DNA of 64,000 nt from Candidatus Bathyarchaeia archaeon (lineage in GTDB: Archaea; Thermoproteota; Bathyarchaeia; Bathyarchaeales; Bathycorpusculaceae). The notes beneath the pieces were generated by a model, which saw only the letters and a list, made by a program, of their open reading frames with translations, was not told the DNA's origin and made no database searches. Made by a program: the position numbers and the translations under genes. The stretch lies in the NCBI GenBank assembly GCA_038883775.1, contig JAVZLM010000005.1, positions 64,001 to 128,000 of the forward strand, given 5' to 3'. Shown here piece by piece: positions 1,247 to 6,343 of the stretch. The first letter of the stretch is position 1. Each line of letters starts with the position of its first letter.

Positions 1247-1516
1247 TTGTCTGCTAAGGCTGAAGGTTTAGGATTTTGGCGGAAAATCAAAGACTTTTTT
1301 ATCGGAGCAACTGTTTATAGCGCTATTAAGGAACTTGAAGAAAGGAGACTGCTTGTCGAGTATGGGTTAATGCTGGCAGTGATTGGAGACATGCTGGGGT
1401 ATCCTGTTCCTTCTTATTATAAGCTTAGATTGCTTCCTTTTTGGTTGCCAAGGATAGAAGCGTGGAAAAGTTTCTTGCTTAAAGAGAAGGATATAACGGA
1501 GAAGTTGAAGGGATAA
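1247..1516 (+). CDS. Small CstA/ArsA-cluster protein, paralog 1
   Basis: Motif GDMLGYP-YYKLRLLP-WK-LLKEKD shared with next ORF; TTG start at 1247 preferred over 1190. Confidence 0.7.
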   Translation: MSAKAEGLGFWRKIKDFFIGATVYSAIKELEERRLLVEYGLMLAVIGDMLGYPVPSYYKLRLLPFWLPRIEAWKSFLLKEKDITEKLKG

Positions 1517-1575
1517 ATAAGAATAACATTTTTATCTTGAGAGTATTTCCTTATTGTTTTGTGAGTGAAAAACCA

Positions 1576-1863
1576 ATGGCGAAAAAAGAAAAGAACGCGG
1601 AAAAAAGGGAAAGCGAGATTAAAAAGGCAGCAAAGGGCTTAGTTTATGGAATGGCTATGCATGGTATGGTGAGTTATGCCCTAAAAACAAGGATGCACTT
1701 GGAAAATCTTTTTATGCTCATTACAATGGGAGACATGCTAGGCGTTCCAGTATTGCCACCATACTACTGCTTAAGGCTTTTGCCATACTGCGTTCCCCAC
1801 ATTAAAACTTGGAAGAGAACATTGCTGAGGGAACGCGACGTCACTGACTCGATTTTTGCCTAA
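1576..1863 (+). CDS. Small CstA/ArsA-cluster protein, paralog 2
   Basis: Motif GDMLGVP-YYCLRLLP-WK-LLRERD; ATG at 1576 (MAKKE). Confidence 0.72.
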   Translation: MAKKEKNAEKRESEIKKAAKGLVYGMAMHGMVSYALKTRMHLENLFMLITMGDMLGVPVLPPYYCLRLLPYCVPHIKTWKRTLLRERDVTDSIFA

Positions 1864-1879
1864 TGGAGGCTGAACAAAT

Positions 1880-2872
1880 TTGTCAATAACTATGTCGATG
1901 GAAGAATATTTAAAAACTCATCCAAACGTGAAATACATACTCTTCGGCGGTAAGGGAGGACTCGGAAAAACAACGTTGTCTGCTGCAACTGCTTATTGGC
2001 TTTCTAAACATGGGAAAAGGGTTGTTGTATTTTCAACAGATCCCCAAGCAAGTCTCACCGATATTTTTGAGAGGAACATTTTCGGCAAGGGAGAGGTTGA
2101 AATAGCCCCTAACCTTTTTGCGTTGGAAATTGATGCTGATAAACGCATAGCGGACTATCAGCAGGAAATTCGAAACAAGATAATGGAAATGTATGGGGAA
2201 GTTCCAAAAGAAGTGGAAGATTATATTCAATCTTCTGCAGCGGAGCCCGCCATGGCTGAATCAGCAACTTTTGACGCCATGGTTGAGTTGATGACAAGCG
2301 GCACATATGATTACTACATTTTTGATATGATGCCACATGGACATGCTATTCGTTTTCTCGGCATGTCAGAAATATTAGACGCTTGGGTTAACAAAATTGT
2401 TGAGACCAGAAAAAAAGCAGCAGAGTATGGTGATGTAGCTTCTGTTATGAGCGGAAAGGGCGGATTAGCTCAAGAAGATAAGATTTTGGAGGAGTTGGAT
2501 TTCATAAGAACCCGATTAGGATTTGTCAGTAACATGATGAGGGATGAGGAGCACACAGCCTTCTTTTATGTTCTTATACCAGAGCTTATGCCAATTCTAG
2601 ACACCAAAAAAGCCCTAGAGATGTTTAGAGCCTTCAACATTCCATTAAGCGGCGTTATAGTGAATCAAGTTTATCCTACGGATTTGTTAAAGCAAAAGAA
2701 TGTTCCTTCATTCTTAAAAAATAAGATATCAATGCAGCAAGAACACATGAAAACGATTCAAAGAGAGTTTGGACCATTAATTCGTGGAATTGTGCCAATG
2801 TTTGATAGAGAACCAAAGGGGCTTAAAATGATTCCTGAAGTTGCTAAGGTACTATTTAAGGAGGGACGCTAG
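1880..2872 (+). CDS. Get3/TRC40/ArsA-family ATPase 1
   Basis: Deviant P-loop GGKGGLGKTT, switch I STDPQAS, switch II DMMPHGH, VIVNQV; RBS GGAGG upstream. Confidence 0.92.
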   Translation: MSITMSMEEYLKTHPNVKYILFGGKGGLGKTTLSAATAYWLSKHGKRVVVFSTDPQASLTDIFERNIFGKGEVEIAPNLFALEIDADKRIADYQQEIRNKIMEMYGEVPKEVEDYIQSSAAEPAMAESATFDAMVELMTSGTYDYYIFDMMPHGHAIRFLGMSEILDAWVNKIVETRKKAAEYGDVASVMSGKGGLAQEDKILEELDFIRTRLGFVSNMMRDEEHTAFFYVLIPELMPILDTKKALEMFRAFNIPLSGVIVNQVYPTDLLKQKNVPSFLKNKISMQQEHMKTIQREFGPLIRGIVPMFDREPKGLKMIPEVAKVLFKEGR

Positions 2873-3879: not shown

Positions 3880-3889
3880 AAGGGGAAAA

Positions 3890-5587
3890 TTAAGTTTTAG
3901 CAGTTTCTTCCTTTGGCTTTGCCCTTAACCGCTGGAAAGCTTTTGCTCCCTCATAACACATGAAAAGACCAAGAATTAACAAGAAGATATTTACAATAGC
4001 TGCAATTAAGGCTCCGATTTTCGAAGGATCTGCAATGTATCCAGTAATTCCACTGTATGTAAGATACGCCAACGCTGACAAGGTAGTTGCTAACATGAAA
4101 AGCATAGGAATCACGGTATAGATTGTGGGACGTTTTTCTTTGGTAAGCCATAGGGACACTATCATCAATGCCAATCCAGCCATGAGTTGATTAGCTCCGC
4201 CGAAAGTGCCCCAAATATAGCTGAATACAGCACCAACGTGTGGACTTGTTATTAAATAGACTATTATGCATACTAAGATGGCACTGAAGTACATATTCTT
4301 GAATATTCCGCCAAATCTGGGCCCACCTAAATCTGACAGAACCAAGCGGGTAATCCTGAGTCCTATATGCATTATTGTTATCGCTAATATAATTAGCATT
4401 ACAGACGTCAATGCATTTCCAACAGTTTCTGAAATTCCTATATAACCTAATAGTTGGGAACCGCCTTTTACAAATACGCTTCCTGCAGCAGTTGTTTCTA
4501 CCAAGCTTGGAGAAAGAATTGCGCATGTAACCAAAGCCACAGTTGCCAGTATTCCCTCAGCCAACATTGCGCCACCACCTATGAAATGAGCATCAGGTTC
4601 TGTATCCAACTGTTTTGAAGTAATGGAAGAGCCTATTAAGCTGTGCCATCCAGATATTGCTCCACATGCGATGGTTACAAACATCATCGGCCATAACGGA
4701 CCAATTGCTGCTGAGTTAACCCATTTTCCCGTAGTCCAAAAGGTTGTGGTCGCTGTTTGCGAAAAATTCGGAGCGCCAATGATAGCGCCAATAATTATGC
4801 CTATAACGCCTGAATATACAAGATAGAAGGAAAGATAGTTAATGGGTTGTATGAAAACCCAAATCGGCAGCACAGCTCCAAGGAAACAGAAGAGCAGAGT
4901 TATGAACATCCAAAAATCTAAAGCGTTTGGAAATGGACCTGTCGCTGGAAGAGGGACCCTAAAAGGTTGGGCTATACCAGCCCAGATTCCTAGAAACATT
5001 ACTATTACGGCGATGATCGTGGTGTAAACTATGTTAACTTTAAGCTTATATGTCATAAAACCTGCTAGCACACCTATAAGTGTTACAATAAGCACAGGTA
5101 TTGGACTTACGGGATAGCTTCTAAATAATCCTGCAACAACGTTGGTGAACGATGAAAGAATCAAAATGATATACCAGAGAATATACCATAACAATATTGT
5201 CCGAGCCCTTGGCGAAACTAACTCATAAGTTATAGGTCCAAAAGAAGCGCCTTCCGATCTTGCTGATACCATTAAGCTTCCATAGTCATGTATCCAGCCG
5301 ATGAATATTGTTCCAAAGAGAATCCACAAAAGGGCGGGAAGCCATCCCCATTGAACGCCAATAATTGGGCCAAGAACAGGTCCCAAGGCTGCTATGCTTT
5401 TCCATTGGAAGCCGAATAGGACGTATTTGTTTGTTGGAAAGAATTCAACGCCATCCATGTATGTGTGTGCGGGCGTTTCTCGTTTAGGGTCTGACATTAT
5501 GACGTTTCTGTCAAACCATTTGACATAGCCCCAATAGGCAATTGCGTAAAGGATTATACCCAATAGAATGACAATTACTGAGAGCAT
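3890..5587 (-). CDS. cstA: Carbon starvation protein A family transporter
   Basis: TPAH..DGVEF, GPVLGPI, WGWLPALLWI, HDYGSL, FVTIACGAISGWHSL, FGGANQL; many TM helices; ATG at 5587 after GGAGGAG. Confidence 0.93.
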   Translation of the reverse strand: MLSVIVILLGIILYAIAYWGYVKWFDRNVIMSDPKRETPAHTYMDGVEFFPTNKYVLFGFQWKSIAALGPVLGPIIGVQWGWLPALLWILFGTIFIGWIHDYGSLMVSARSEGASFGPITYELVSPRARTILLWYILWYIILILSSFTNVVAGLFRSYPVSPIPVLIVTLIGVLAGFMTYKLKVNIVYTTIIAVIVMFLGIWAGIAQPFRVPLPATGPFPNALDFWMFITLLFCFLGAVLPIWVFIQPINYLSFYLVYSGVIGIIIGAIIGAPNFSQTATTTFWTTGKWVNSAAIGPLWPMMFVTIACGAISGWHSLIGSSITSKQLDTEPDAHFIGGGAMLAEGILATVALVTCAILSPSLVETTAAGSVFVKGGSQLLGYIGISETVGNALTSVMLIILAITIMHIGLRITRLVLSDLGGPRFGGIFKNMYFSAILVCIIVYLITSPHVGAVFSYIWGTFGGANQLMAGLALMIVSLWLTKEKRPTIYTVIPMLFMLATTLSALAYLTYSGITGYIADPSKIGALIAAIVNIFLLILGLFMCYEGAKAFQRLRAKPKEETAKT

Positions 5588-5686
5588 TTTTCTCCTCCAA
5601 AAATGTATATTGAGGGTTATCTTAATATAAAACTTATCATACACATCAAAGCAGAATGGCCGCCCGTCAACGAAAGGAGCCTTAAA

Positions 5687-6343
5687 ATGTACGAATTTAC
5701 TGCAATCTTCCTTCTCGCTTTACTTTTTATAATTGTATACTTTATTGGAATGAGACAAAACCGAAAGATTGCAGTCAAATACGCCAGAACAGTAAAGGAA
5801 TATATGTCTCCGAAAAGCGAGTTTGTAGGCTTCCGTCCATACAGCCGAGGAGGATTTAGAGCAGTATGCAAAATGAAAGAAAAGGAGGCTTTCAAACAAA
5901 TTGAAATGGCAGTAAGCCTCGTAGACCGGGAAAACCTAATGCATTACCCATTAACACTACTAACAAAAGACACCGATCGCCTCGCATGTTGGGGGTTCCT
6001 TAAAGACCCATTATCTCTCAGCATGGAAATCCTATCAAAACCAAATGAAAAAATACGTAAAAAAATGGCTACGGAGAAAAACCTTAAAGAGATAACCGTA
6101 AACAATACATTAAATTCCTCTTTTACTATCCTCACATCAGACCAAAAGTCTGCAAAAAGATTCTTGTCCTATACTAAACTCGAAAAATGCCTAATGGAAA
6201 CGAAGGATTTTGTAAAACGTCTTTCTTTAGACAGCAAAGATTCAAGAATATATTTAATAGGCGACTTGCGAGATGAGTCCACAATAAAATCACTTTTTGA
6301 CATTTTGTTGTGTTGTGGTGAACAAAGCAGAAAAATACACTAA
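5687..6343 (+). CDS. Single-pass membrane protein resembling CCDC47/DUF1682 (PAT complex subunit)
   Basis: N-terminal TM then YFIGMRQNRKIA, and LVDRENLM...DRL; ATG at 5687 after AGGAG; family similarity recognised by eye from memory. Confidence 0.6.
   Translation: MYEFTAIFLLALLFIIVYFIGMRQNRKIAVKYARTVKEYMSPKSEFVGFRPYSRGGFRAVCKMKEKEAFKQIEMAVSLVDRENLMHYPLTLLTKDTDRLACWGFLKDPLSLSMEILSKPNEKIRKKMATEKNLKEITVNNTLNSSFTILTSDQKSAKRFLSYTKLEKCLMETKDFVKRLSLDSKDSRIYLIGDLRDESTIKSLFDILLCCGEQSRKIH

Follow-up and report, generated by a model that had tools for sequence, protein, structure and literature searches.

Clusters of the transporter gene cstA with genes for small proteins and ArsA-like ATPases were described by Castillo and Saier in 2010 (PMC2963123). 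In that survey, cstA clusters with cstX, which encodes a protein of ~90 amino acids (aa), and with single-domain ArsA homologues of ~330 aa; the latter form adjacent pairs in some organisms, and CstX is duplicated in some archaea. A further gene, cstY, for a ~210-aa protein with a single transmembrane segment, was present in five archaea and was called a nonessential auxiliary without relatives. Thermococcus kodakarensis is among the organisms for which the survey gives cstA, cstX, arsA and cstY. The trees were congruent, arsenic genes were noted to be absent from cstA operons, and the gene context led to the hypothesis that CstA is energised by the ATPase, to which CstX links it; the survey also has the cluster in bacteria. 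Here we analyse six contiguous genes of a Candidatus Bathyarchaeia archaeon (assembly GCA_038883775.1, contig JAVZLM010000005.1), located in a stretch of 64,000 nucleotides (contig positions 64,001 to 128,000, forward strand) that we call the window and number from its first letter. The locus is a further copy of the cstA-cstX-arsA-cstY cluster known since 2010, not a new kind of system. Two things are new relative to print: CstY is, going by its predicted structure, a compact homologue of the eukaryotic protein CCDC47 with relatives in Asgard archaea, and the ATPase pair has a fixed catalytic asymmetry. A literature search found no later work or experiment on the CstA/CstX/CstY module since 2010. 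The cluster consists of the following parts.

1247..1516, plus strand: cstX1, 89 aa from TTG at 1247 (open reading frame, ORF, open 1190-1516); the less conserved of the two small paralogues
1576..1863, plus strand: cstX2, 95 aa from ATG at 1576 (ORF 1537-1863); directly upstream of arsA1
1880..2872, plus strand: arsA1, 330 aa; single-domain ATPase of the Get3/ArsA family
2875..3879, plus strand: arsA2, 334 aa; ATPase paralogous to ArsA1
3890..5587, minus strand: cstA, 565 aa from ATG at 5587 (ORF 3890-5644); multipass transporter of the CstA family
5588..5686, no strand: divergent spacer between cstA and cstY, 99 bp
5687..6343, plus strand: cstY, the CCDC47-like gene, 218 aa from ATG at 5687 (ORF 5603-6343); predicted single-pass membrane protein

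All six ORFs are present on the strands and at the coordinates given by the first-pass annotation, a reading of the letters and a list of ORFs without database searches. Its description of a small-protein/ATPase operon converging on cstA, and of a divergent spacer between cstA and the CCDC47-like gene, also holds. The genes arsA1 and arsA2 are separated by 2 bases, the stops of arsA2 (3879) and cstA (3890) are convergent and 10 bp apart, and the starts of cstA (5587) and cstY (5687) diverge across 99 bp. The two small proteins are paralogous as claimed (41% identity over 74 aa, E 2e-19), and so are the two ATPases (39% identity over 336 aa, E 2e-73). The CstY start at 5687 is supported because the start Met of the 218-aa form is invariant in an alignment of 25 homologues. 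With its CstA, two CstX proteins (89 and 95 aa), two ~330-aa ATPases and 218-aa CstY, the window has the same parts as the 2010 cluster, equated by size and context; cluster 15 of that survey, which has two ATPases and two CstX, is described as lacking CstY, whereas here this type has one (PMC2963123). The first-pass annotation had called the function of such neighbourhoods unexplained, a claim that is not supported, since all six parts were described and a hypothesis was given in 2010 (PMC2963123).

The main evidence on CstY is structural. An AlphaFold2 model built from an 81-row alignment (mean pLDDT 94.5, pTM 0.87) begins with a long helix, after which comes an alpha/beta domain; the transmembrane (TM) helix is predicted at about residues 4-22, with a single hydrophobic peak of 2.72 at residue 4. 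The top three chains in a Foldseek search of the PDB are all named CCDC47 (7tm3_4, 9i78_4 and 6w6l_7; E 3.1e-10, 5e-9 and 2e-6; TM-score by query 0.78, 0.75 and 0.62), and the next match has a TM-score of 0.23. VIA-align superposes model residues 1-218 on residues 136-397 of the 483-aa rabbit CCDC47 chain 7tm3_4 with Z 20.4 and a root-mean-square deviation (rmsd) of 2.4 Å over 215 of the 218 residues; Z is 17.6 for the fungal and 13.8 for the human CCDC47 chain, and 7.8 for the best unrelated row. CstY starts 3 residues before the TM helix and stops at the last helix of the globular domain, lacking the luminal N-terminal domain and the C-terminal coiled coil of CCDC47. On this model, CstY corresponds to the TM helix of CCDC47 together with its globular cytosolic part and is a shortened structural homologue, and the CCDC47 likeness claimed for the 218-aa product extends end to end in the predicted structure. 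Our literature search found no published link between CstY and CCDC47.

The sequence case is weaker, and a chance TM-helix match between CCDC47 and an unrelated neighbour of cstA has to be considered. The window CstY scores 21.3-21.6 bits against the Pfam family PF07946 (CCDC47), below the cut-off of 27.7, and aligns over the TM region only (residues 6-54). A profile of its close homologues has no match in the PDB at E up to 10, and its 97 matches among 1.84 billion representatives are 54-267 aa long, with no eukaryote-length protein; a profile search for longer CstY relatives likewise gave none at E up to 10. Another CstY profile reaches CCDC47 (9i78_4) in the PDB at E 1.2, and in a feature search of the ESM Atlas the CCDC47 cluster ranked 30th for the window CstY (0.79), which is a lead only. 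However, PF07946 is matched at E<0.01 by 29 of 107 family members, 16 among 48 diverse homologues and 13 among another 59. Three of them pass the cut-off (P0121, 33.5 bits; P0132, 29.1; P0194, 36.1). Many of the 29 align collinearly with the profile, starting at the TM helix (profile position ~5-11) and extending as far as position ~200-252 of 326. A profile built from 20 PF07946-matching members places mammalian CCDC47 first among 177,635 PDB sequences (7tm3_4 and 6w6l_7; E 0.002, 20.9 bits). The structure match spans the whole of CstY, which settles the weak sequence case for the CCDC47 label. Together with the co-occurrence of CstY with cstA, ATPase and CstX genes described below, the structural alignment rules out a chance match, to which we give hardly any credence.

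Residues conserved across the family include R81 and D97, present in 81/81 members, and, where the helix meets the cytosol, G21 (80/81) and N25 (74/81); the latter two align to a G and an N of Chaetomium thermophilum CCDC47. Besides PF07946, only DUF3137 (PF11335) appeared among CstY homologues, in five proteins; the window CstY scores 19.5-19.9 bits, under the cut-off of 26.1, and P0084, which NCBI names DUF3137, passes at 31.7 bits. The soluble domain of CstY (residues 25-218) also aligns to mycobacterial TtfA (6t84) with Z 14.8 and rmsd 3.3 Å over 155 residues, a Z that exceeds that of the human CCDC47 chain. Judging by these models, CCDC47, CstY and TtfA may belong to a single fold family whose members are accessory proteins anchored in the membrane. 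The Atlas clusters closest to CstY are 211-252 aa long, with feature scores of 0.93-0.97 and TM-scores of 0.69-0.72 by query; most are labelled Bacteria (Chloroflexota, Acidobacteriota and Thermodesulfobacteriota), labels that rest on few members, and bacterial CstY-like proteins may exist.

The CstY family includes proteins named Jordarchaeaceae, Hodarchaeales and Heimdallarchaeota. A near-length profile search returned 69 proteins, mostly of ~250-270 aa and archaeal only, and all source names given among them are Heimdallarchaeota, Hodarchaeales, Hodarchaeota or Promethearchaeota. The Bathyarchaeia CstY profile, with the window protein as first row, matches this Asgard group with 94.8% probability (E 5e-8, 211 columns), and the ESM Atlas model of the Asgard protein P0202 matches the eukaryotic CCDC47 cluster with a TM-score of 0.69 over 230 residues. 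Gene context comes from one Asgard metagenome locus (L101, region 6012-11887), where the CCDC47-like gene at 9926-10738 directly follows ThiF/E1-like, UQ_con/E2-like and JAB genes and faces two Arf-family GTPase genes. This gene appears to encode P0202, having the same length and identical Pfam scores.

Eukaryotic CCDC47 could have descended from archaeal CstY, a scenario that is possible but rather doubtful. The transporter link would have been lost in the Asgard lineage, in which the stand-alone ~260-aa form is common, and the protein would then have been recruited to the ribosome-translocon, gaining the luminal domain and the coiled coil. If so, the archaeal module would be a living case of CCDC47-fold and Get3-fold proteins acting jointly on membrane helices, and the poorly understood globular domain of CCDC47 would become testable in a simple prokaryotic system. 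In the article texts searched we found no published link between CCDC47 and archaea; a family resembling CCDC47 may already be listed in the supplements of the papers on Asgard eukaryotic signature proteins or of a 2026 structural-clustering preprint.

The assignment of the ATPases to the Get3/ArsA family is well founded. ArsA1 and ArsA2 score 240.5 and 209.6 bits against PF02374 (ArsA_ATPase) and 230.3 and 215.8 bits against TIGR00345 (GET3/ArsA/TRC40; cut-off 135), and their closest solved relatives are archaeal Get3 proteins, 3ug6 (E 1.8e-63 for ArsA1 and 2.1e-50 for ArsA2) and 3zq6. Both P-loops are intact (GGKGGLGKTT in ArsA1, GGKGGVGKTV in ArsA2), and the switch II motifs are DMMPHGH and DTAPVAH, respectively. 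The two proteins differ in switch I, where ArsA1 keeps the Asp (TDPQAS) and ArsA2 has Asn in its place (TNPVHS), opposite the D of 'vstDpahs' in the alignment to 3ug6_A. The asymmetry is fixed among related systems: the first ATPase has Asp and the second Asn in 20/20 two-ATPase systems, and the Asp is kept in 21/21 single-ATPase systems. A phylogeny of 61 ATPases resolves three groups, each as a single split: the Asn type (support 0.996), the Asp-type partners of that type (0.996) and the ATPases of single-ATPase systems (1.0). The ATPase duplication and the Asp-to-Asn change are therefore old. Going by the yeast motif, we take the switch-I Asp to be the counterpart of D57 of yeast Get3. D57 is reported to be catalytic, and the D57N variant to bind ATP without hydrolysing it (PMC12506534). 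By this correspondence ArsA2 probably binds ATP without hydrolysis.

Membership in the ArsA/Get3 family also brings up arsenite or antimonite resistance, in which ArsA-type ATPases would energise metalloid efflux; the first-pass annotation had argued against it. Neither ATPase contains a single cysteine, which excludes both the thiol metalloid site of ArsA and the CxxC zinc site of Get3; the CdfC of 3ug6 aligns to non-Cys residues in both, and no CxxC motif is present. The proteins are single-domain, and their scores against the ArsA equivalogs (115.9 and 97.6 bits for TIGR04291 with its cut-off of 650; 98-134 bits overall) lie far below the cut-offs of 650-800. No ArsB was found in the genome, which is 91% complete and in which ArsA1 and ArsA2 are the sole full-length Get3/ArsA genes. 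The 2010 survey, as noted, has cstA operons free of arsenic genes (PMC2963123). Arsenite handling by the pair is unlikely on these sequence features, and metalloid resistance as the role of the cluster seems to us exceedingly improbable. Scores against the NCBIfam families NF053622 and NF053621 (BagA/BagB) are also low, at 33-56 bits against cut-offs of 400-521.

The small proteins accompany the ATPases in number. ATPase:CstX counts per locus are 1:1 in 21 loci, 2:2 in 15 and 2:1 in 4. CstX2 is the best conserved protein of the cluster (84-99% identity in 12 related loci), and relatives of CstX1 align from residues 1-9 of its 89-aa form. Neither the window proteins nor the homologues scanned match a Pfam family, and no solved relative was found in the PDB by sequence. 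Matches to the NCBIfam family CC_star_Cory, all below its cut-off of 80 bits, occur in 12 of 25 CstX members; CstX2 scores 31.7 bits (E 1.2e-7) and CstX1 18-19 bits. The central helix is moderately hydrophobic: peak 19-residue hydropathy is 1.34 in CstX1 and 1.41 in CstX2, against a TM threshold of 1.6, and ranges over 1.3-2.0 (Kyte-Doolittle scale, KD) in 58 homologues.

A seventh gene of ~150 aa stands after the last cstX or adjoins cstY in many two-ATPase clusters of other lineages, for example at L103:10876-11325 on the plus strand. It has the motif ...VGN..G.YNF.VL..P..W...WVR.G. and no Pfam family, and no copy was found in the window (tblastn, E 1e-3). Other copies are in L102, L104-L107, L110, L111, L058/L059, L063, L064, L068, L071, L074, L077, L079, L080, L082, L088, L091 and L092.

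Whether cstY belongs functionally with its neighbours depends largely on linkage. Among close relatives, cstA adjoins cstY in 13 of 14 loci and all six genes are present in 11 of 14, which is weak evidence because the flanks are mostly shared too. A broader survey covered 401 Thermoproteota genomes, of which 53, in 30 of 162 genera, have a CstY profile match and 70 a CstX match. Both occur in 48 genomes; about 9 would be expected if they were independent, a comparison that is no test since kin are not independent. We fetched 55 places with ±8 kb of flank and found a CstY ORF in 53. Within 8 kb of these 53, cstA is present in 44, an ATPase gene in 40, cstX in 42 and all three in 39. The CCDC47-like gene therefore keeps company with cstA, cstX and the ATPases far outside the circle of close relatives; the first-pass annotation had named the lack of such co-occurrence as grounds for rejecting its proposal. 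Gene order varies. The arrangement of the window, with cstY and cstA divergent, is found in 12 loci; in 11 cstY is immediately upstream of cstA on the same strand, and in 1 it is downstream of cstA. In 19 it comes directly after an ATPase gene (with a gap of at most 5 bp or an overlap in 14 of them), and in 10 no partner lies within 1 kb. A linkage that outlasts such reshuffling, along with the overlap of starts and stops, argues for joint function. Patristic distances in the CstA and CstY trees correlate with r = 0.90 over 26 pairs, a value reached in 0 of 2000 permutations, although this may reflect mere shared descent; CstY evolves ~1.5 times faster than CstA in the same comparison.

CstY may be undercounted by its profile. 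CstX occurs without a CstY match in 22 genomes, most of them from one family (f24), in which 19 of 23 genomes have CstX and 1 of 23 has CstY. A protein of 174-186 aa with an N-terminal helix is encoded directly upstream of cstA in all 6 f24 loci fetched; it carries the motifs 'G/A-R-x-x-N-x-K' and 'RxPWDNP' and matches the CstY profile with 76% probability (E 2.2e-5, 147 columns). These divergent CstY-like proteins indicate that CstY is more general than the profile count suggests. The f24 proteins of ~180 aa (L102-L105, L110 and L111) have four invariant Cys, at positions 36, 39, 57 and 165 of the first row, none of which is present in the window CstY. In the window's own GTDB family, a CstY match occurs in 1 of 25 other genomes and CstX in none of the 25, which points to patchy loss or transfer of a module that is rare among close kin. 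The sole match in that family (G013) is a divergent copy adjoining Tsr3, and its contig ends before any cstA is seen. In L014, the one of the 14 close-relative loci where cstA does not adjoin cstY, a 156-aa CstY paralogue truncated at its N terminus (5895-6365) aligns to residues 66-213 of the window CstY only (48% identity) and lacks the TM helix; its 7.8-kb contig has no cstA, ATPase or cstX.

This distribution also bears on the view that the ATPases and CstY have general roles, the former in Get3-type targeting and the latter in CCDC47-like biogenesis, and merely lie beside cstA. The ATPases are the only full-length genes of their family in the genome, and many Asgard archaea have the stand-alone ~260-aa form of CstY, which lies away from cstA in L101, as such a view would have it. 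However, the factors are too patchy for general ones, with CstY absent from 348 and CstX from 331 of the 401 genomes, and the window's own family does without CstY in 24 and without CstX in 25 of its 25 other members. The linkage of CstY to cstA and cstX through several rearrangements is a further argument against a general role, which we regard as clearly improbable.

CstA itself is a distant member of its family, which imports pyruvate and peptides in bacteria. It scores 397.1 bits against PF02554 and 203 bits against the NCBIfam pyruvate/proton symporter CstA (cut-off 1188), and has about 17 hydrophobic peaks and no solved relative in the PDB by sequence; no second CstA-family gene was found in the genome. 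The spacer between cstA and cstY contains a TATA-like element, ATCTTAATATAAAACTTATCA, at 5619-5639 in its middle, which is kept in 9 of 11 aligned spacers (the window and 10 relatives, the exceptions being L010 and L012). From this we infer that the spacer is a putative bidirectional archaeal promoter shared by the two genes.

Two genes flank the cluster, identified by Pfam and NCBIfam.

16-1173, minus strand: class-V aminotransferase
6340-6864, minus strand: Tsr3/DUF367 gene

Rfam, tRNA and repeat scans of the region returned nothing notable. Contigs of 90-96% similarity from two runs labelled metatranscriptomic, both flagged as probably DNA, partly cover the six genes.

We tentatively read the six genes as encoding one membrane complex, a CstA transporter coupled to or gated by the ATPases in which CstY is an accessory subunit anchored in the membrane, and hold this as plausible rather than probable. 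ArsA1 and ArsA2 would form an uneven heterodimer of the Get3/ArsA fold in which ArsA1 hydrolyses ATP and ArsA2 only binds it, and each ATPase subunit would have one small CstX as adaptor or coupling element. CstY, anchored by its N-terminal helix, would hold the soluble ATPase module at CstA through its CCDC47/TtfA-fold domain. In this way the binding and hydrolysis of ATP would power CstA uptake or gate it, much as ArsA acts on ArsB. The data themselves give the set of genes, their folds, the conservation of the linkage, the 1:1 numbers and the Asp/Asn asymmetry; from these we infer the physical contacts, the substrate and the direction of coupling. A prediction of the CstA-CstY complex from paired 26-row alignments gave a score of 0.00 (mark 0.32) and bears neither way on binding.

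Several points weigh against a CstA-centred complex. Eight of the 53 CstY loci have no partner within 8 kb (3 of them near contig ends), and the Asgard gene in L101 has no cstA, ATPase or cstX within 10 kb. CstA homologues of Escherichia coli work without an ArsA-like ATPase (PMC5847655), so the ATPase is not needed for the basic function of the family. As the sole Get3-family genes of the genome, the ATPases could carry a general role too. The contacts, transport and ATPase activity that the complex calls for are conjectured from genes and models. Finally, CCDC47 and Get3 both act in eukaryotic membrane-protein biogenesis, which suggests a fit with a biogenesis role that is better than coincidence.

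That role was proposed in the first-pass annotation as a dedicated insertion or maturation machine for CstA. Spelled out, a Get3-like heterodimer would shield hydrophobic helices of CstX or of nascent CstA, CstY would be a membrane receptor or intramembrane chaperone like CCDC47 in the PAT complex, and the module would serve to insert or assemble CstA. Two homologues of eukaryotic biogenesis factors in one cluster are striking. CstY is a structural homologue of CCDC47 over its whole length, TM helix included, and shares G21 and N25 with the C. thermophilum protein; the closest solved relatives of the ATPases are Get3 proteins. The client grooves of Get3 are Met-rich, and ArsA1 is rich in Met (20 of 330 residues); the moderately hydrophobic central helix of CstX could occupy such a groove. 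However, this hydrophobic stretch is central, and CstX is hence not tail-anchored. Both ATPases lack the CxxC motif of Get3, and no homologue of Asterix was found in the genome, the best PF03669 match having E 0.09 and 13.3 bits. CstY also lacks the C-terminal coiled coil by which CCDC47 contacts Sec61 and the ribosome (PMC7505659). A chaperone system for a single transporter, kept across phyla, would be unusual, and the CstA relatives of E. coli insert and work without one (PMC5847655). We consider a dedicated biogenesis machine unlikely, and nothing in the present data separates it from the energising of CstA by the ATPases.

The module is widespread in archaea and its hypothesis was published in 2010; the window adds an example from Bathyarchaeia and a phylum-wide survey. 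CstY connects a prokaryotic transporter module to the eukaryotic machinery for multipass proteins, and as a small, well-modelled protein it is suited to asking what the globular domain of CCDC47 binds. The Asp/Asn asymmetry is a natural version of the Get3 D57N ATP trap and may inform the use of one versus two catalytic sites in Get3/ArsA dimers.

Comparison with known systems places these features in context. CCDC47 of the PAT complex/multipass translocon (7tm3, 6w6l and 9i78) has, like CstY, one TM helix, a globular cytosolic domain and a juxtamembrane G...N, and CstY would share its topology, with an external N terminus and a cytosolic domain. In contrast, sequence identity is 10-18%, and cstY lies in a transporter/ATPase cluster and not with translocon genes. 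TtfA (6t84, 'trehalose monomycolate transport factor A' in the PDB title) shares the fold of the soluble domain at 6% sequence identity, and its transporter family and cargo differ; it is an accessory factor of the MmpL3 transporter, and we know of no ATPase partner for it.

In the ArsA-ArsB system, ArsB is a carrier that ArsA makes into an ATP-driven pump. As in the module, an ATPase of the ArsA fold is encoded with a secondary carrier, but ArsA consists of two fused domains (~580 aa) with a metalloid Cys triad, whereas the window ATPases are single-domain and free of Cys; the carriers are unrelated, and CstX and CstY are extra parts here. Archaeal Get3 (3ug6 from Methanocaldococcus jannaschii and 3zq6 from Methanothermobacter thermautotrophicus) resembles the window ATPases in P-loop, switch regions and length. 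Unlike Get3/TRC40, the window pair consists of paralogues, proposed to form a heterodimer, one of which has Asn at the catalytic Asp; CxxC is absent, and the genes are tied to cstA and cstX. BagA and BagB of Mycobacterium tuberculosis are reportedly two interacting Get3-like ATPase paralogues, which are not known to have a cstA context; they and the window ATPases are both prokaryotic Get3-like pairs, but the family matches are weak (33-56 bits).

In E. coli, CstA and the small protein YbdD form a pyruvate transporter system (PMC5847655). Like the module, CstA-YbdD and BtsT-YjiX combine a CstA-family transporter with a small protein encoded alongside it (PMC5847655; bioRxiv 10.1101/2022.07.06.499078). 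YbdD and YjiX are DUF466 proteins ending in Cys-Cys, whereas CstX has no Pfam match; we do not claim homology between them and CstX. The 2010 description of the cluster gives neither the CCDC47/TtfA fold nor the Asp/Asn asymmetry (PMC2963123). By analogy, the precedents of ArsA-ArsB, E. coli CstA-YbdD and TtfA would fit an accessory or energising module at least as well as an insertion machine.

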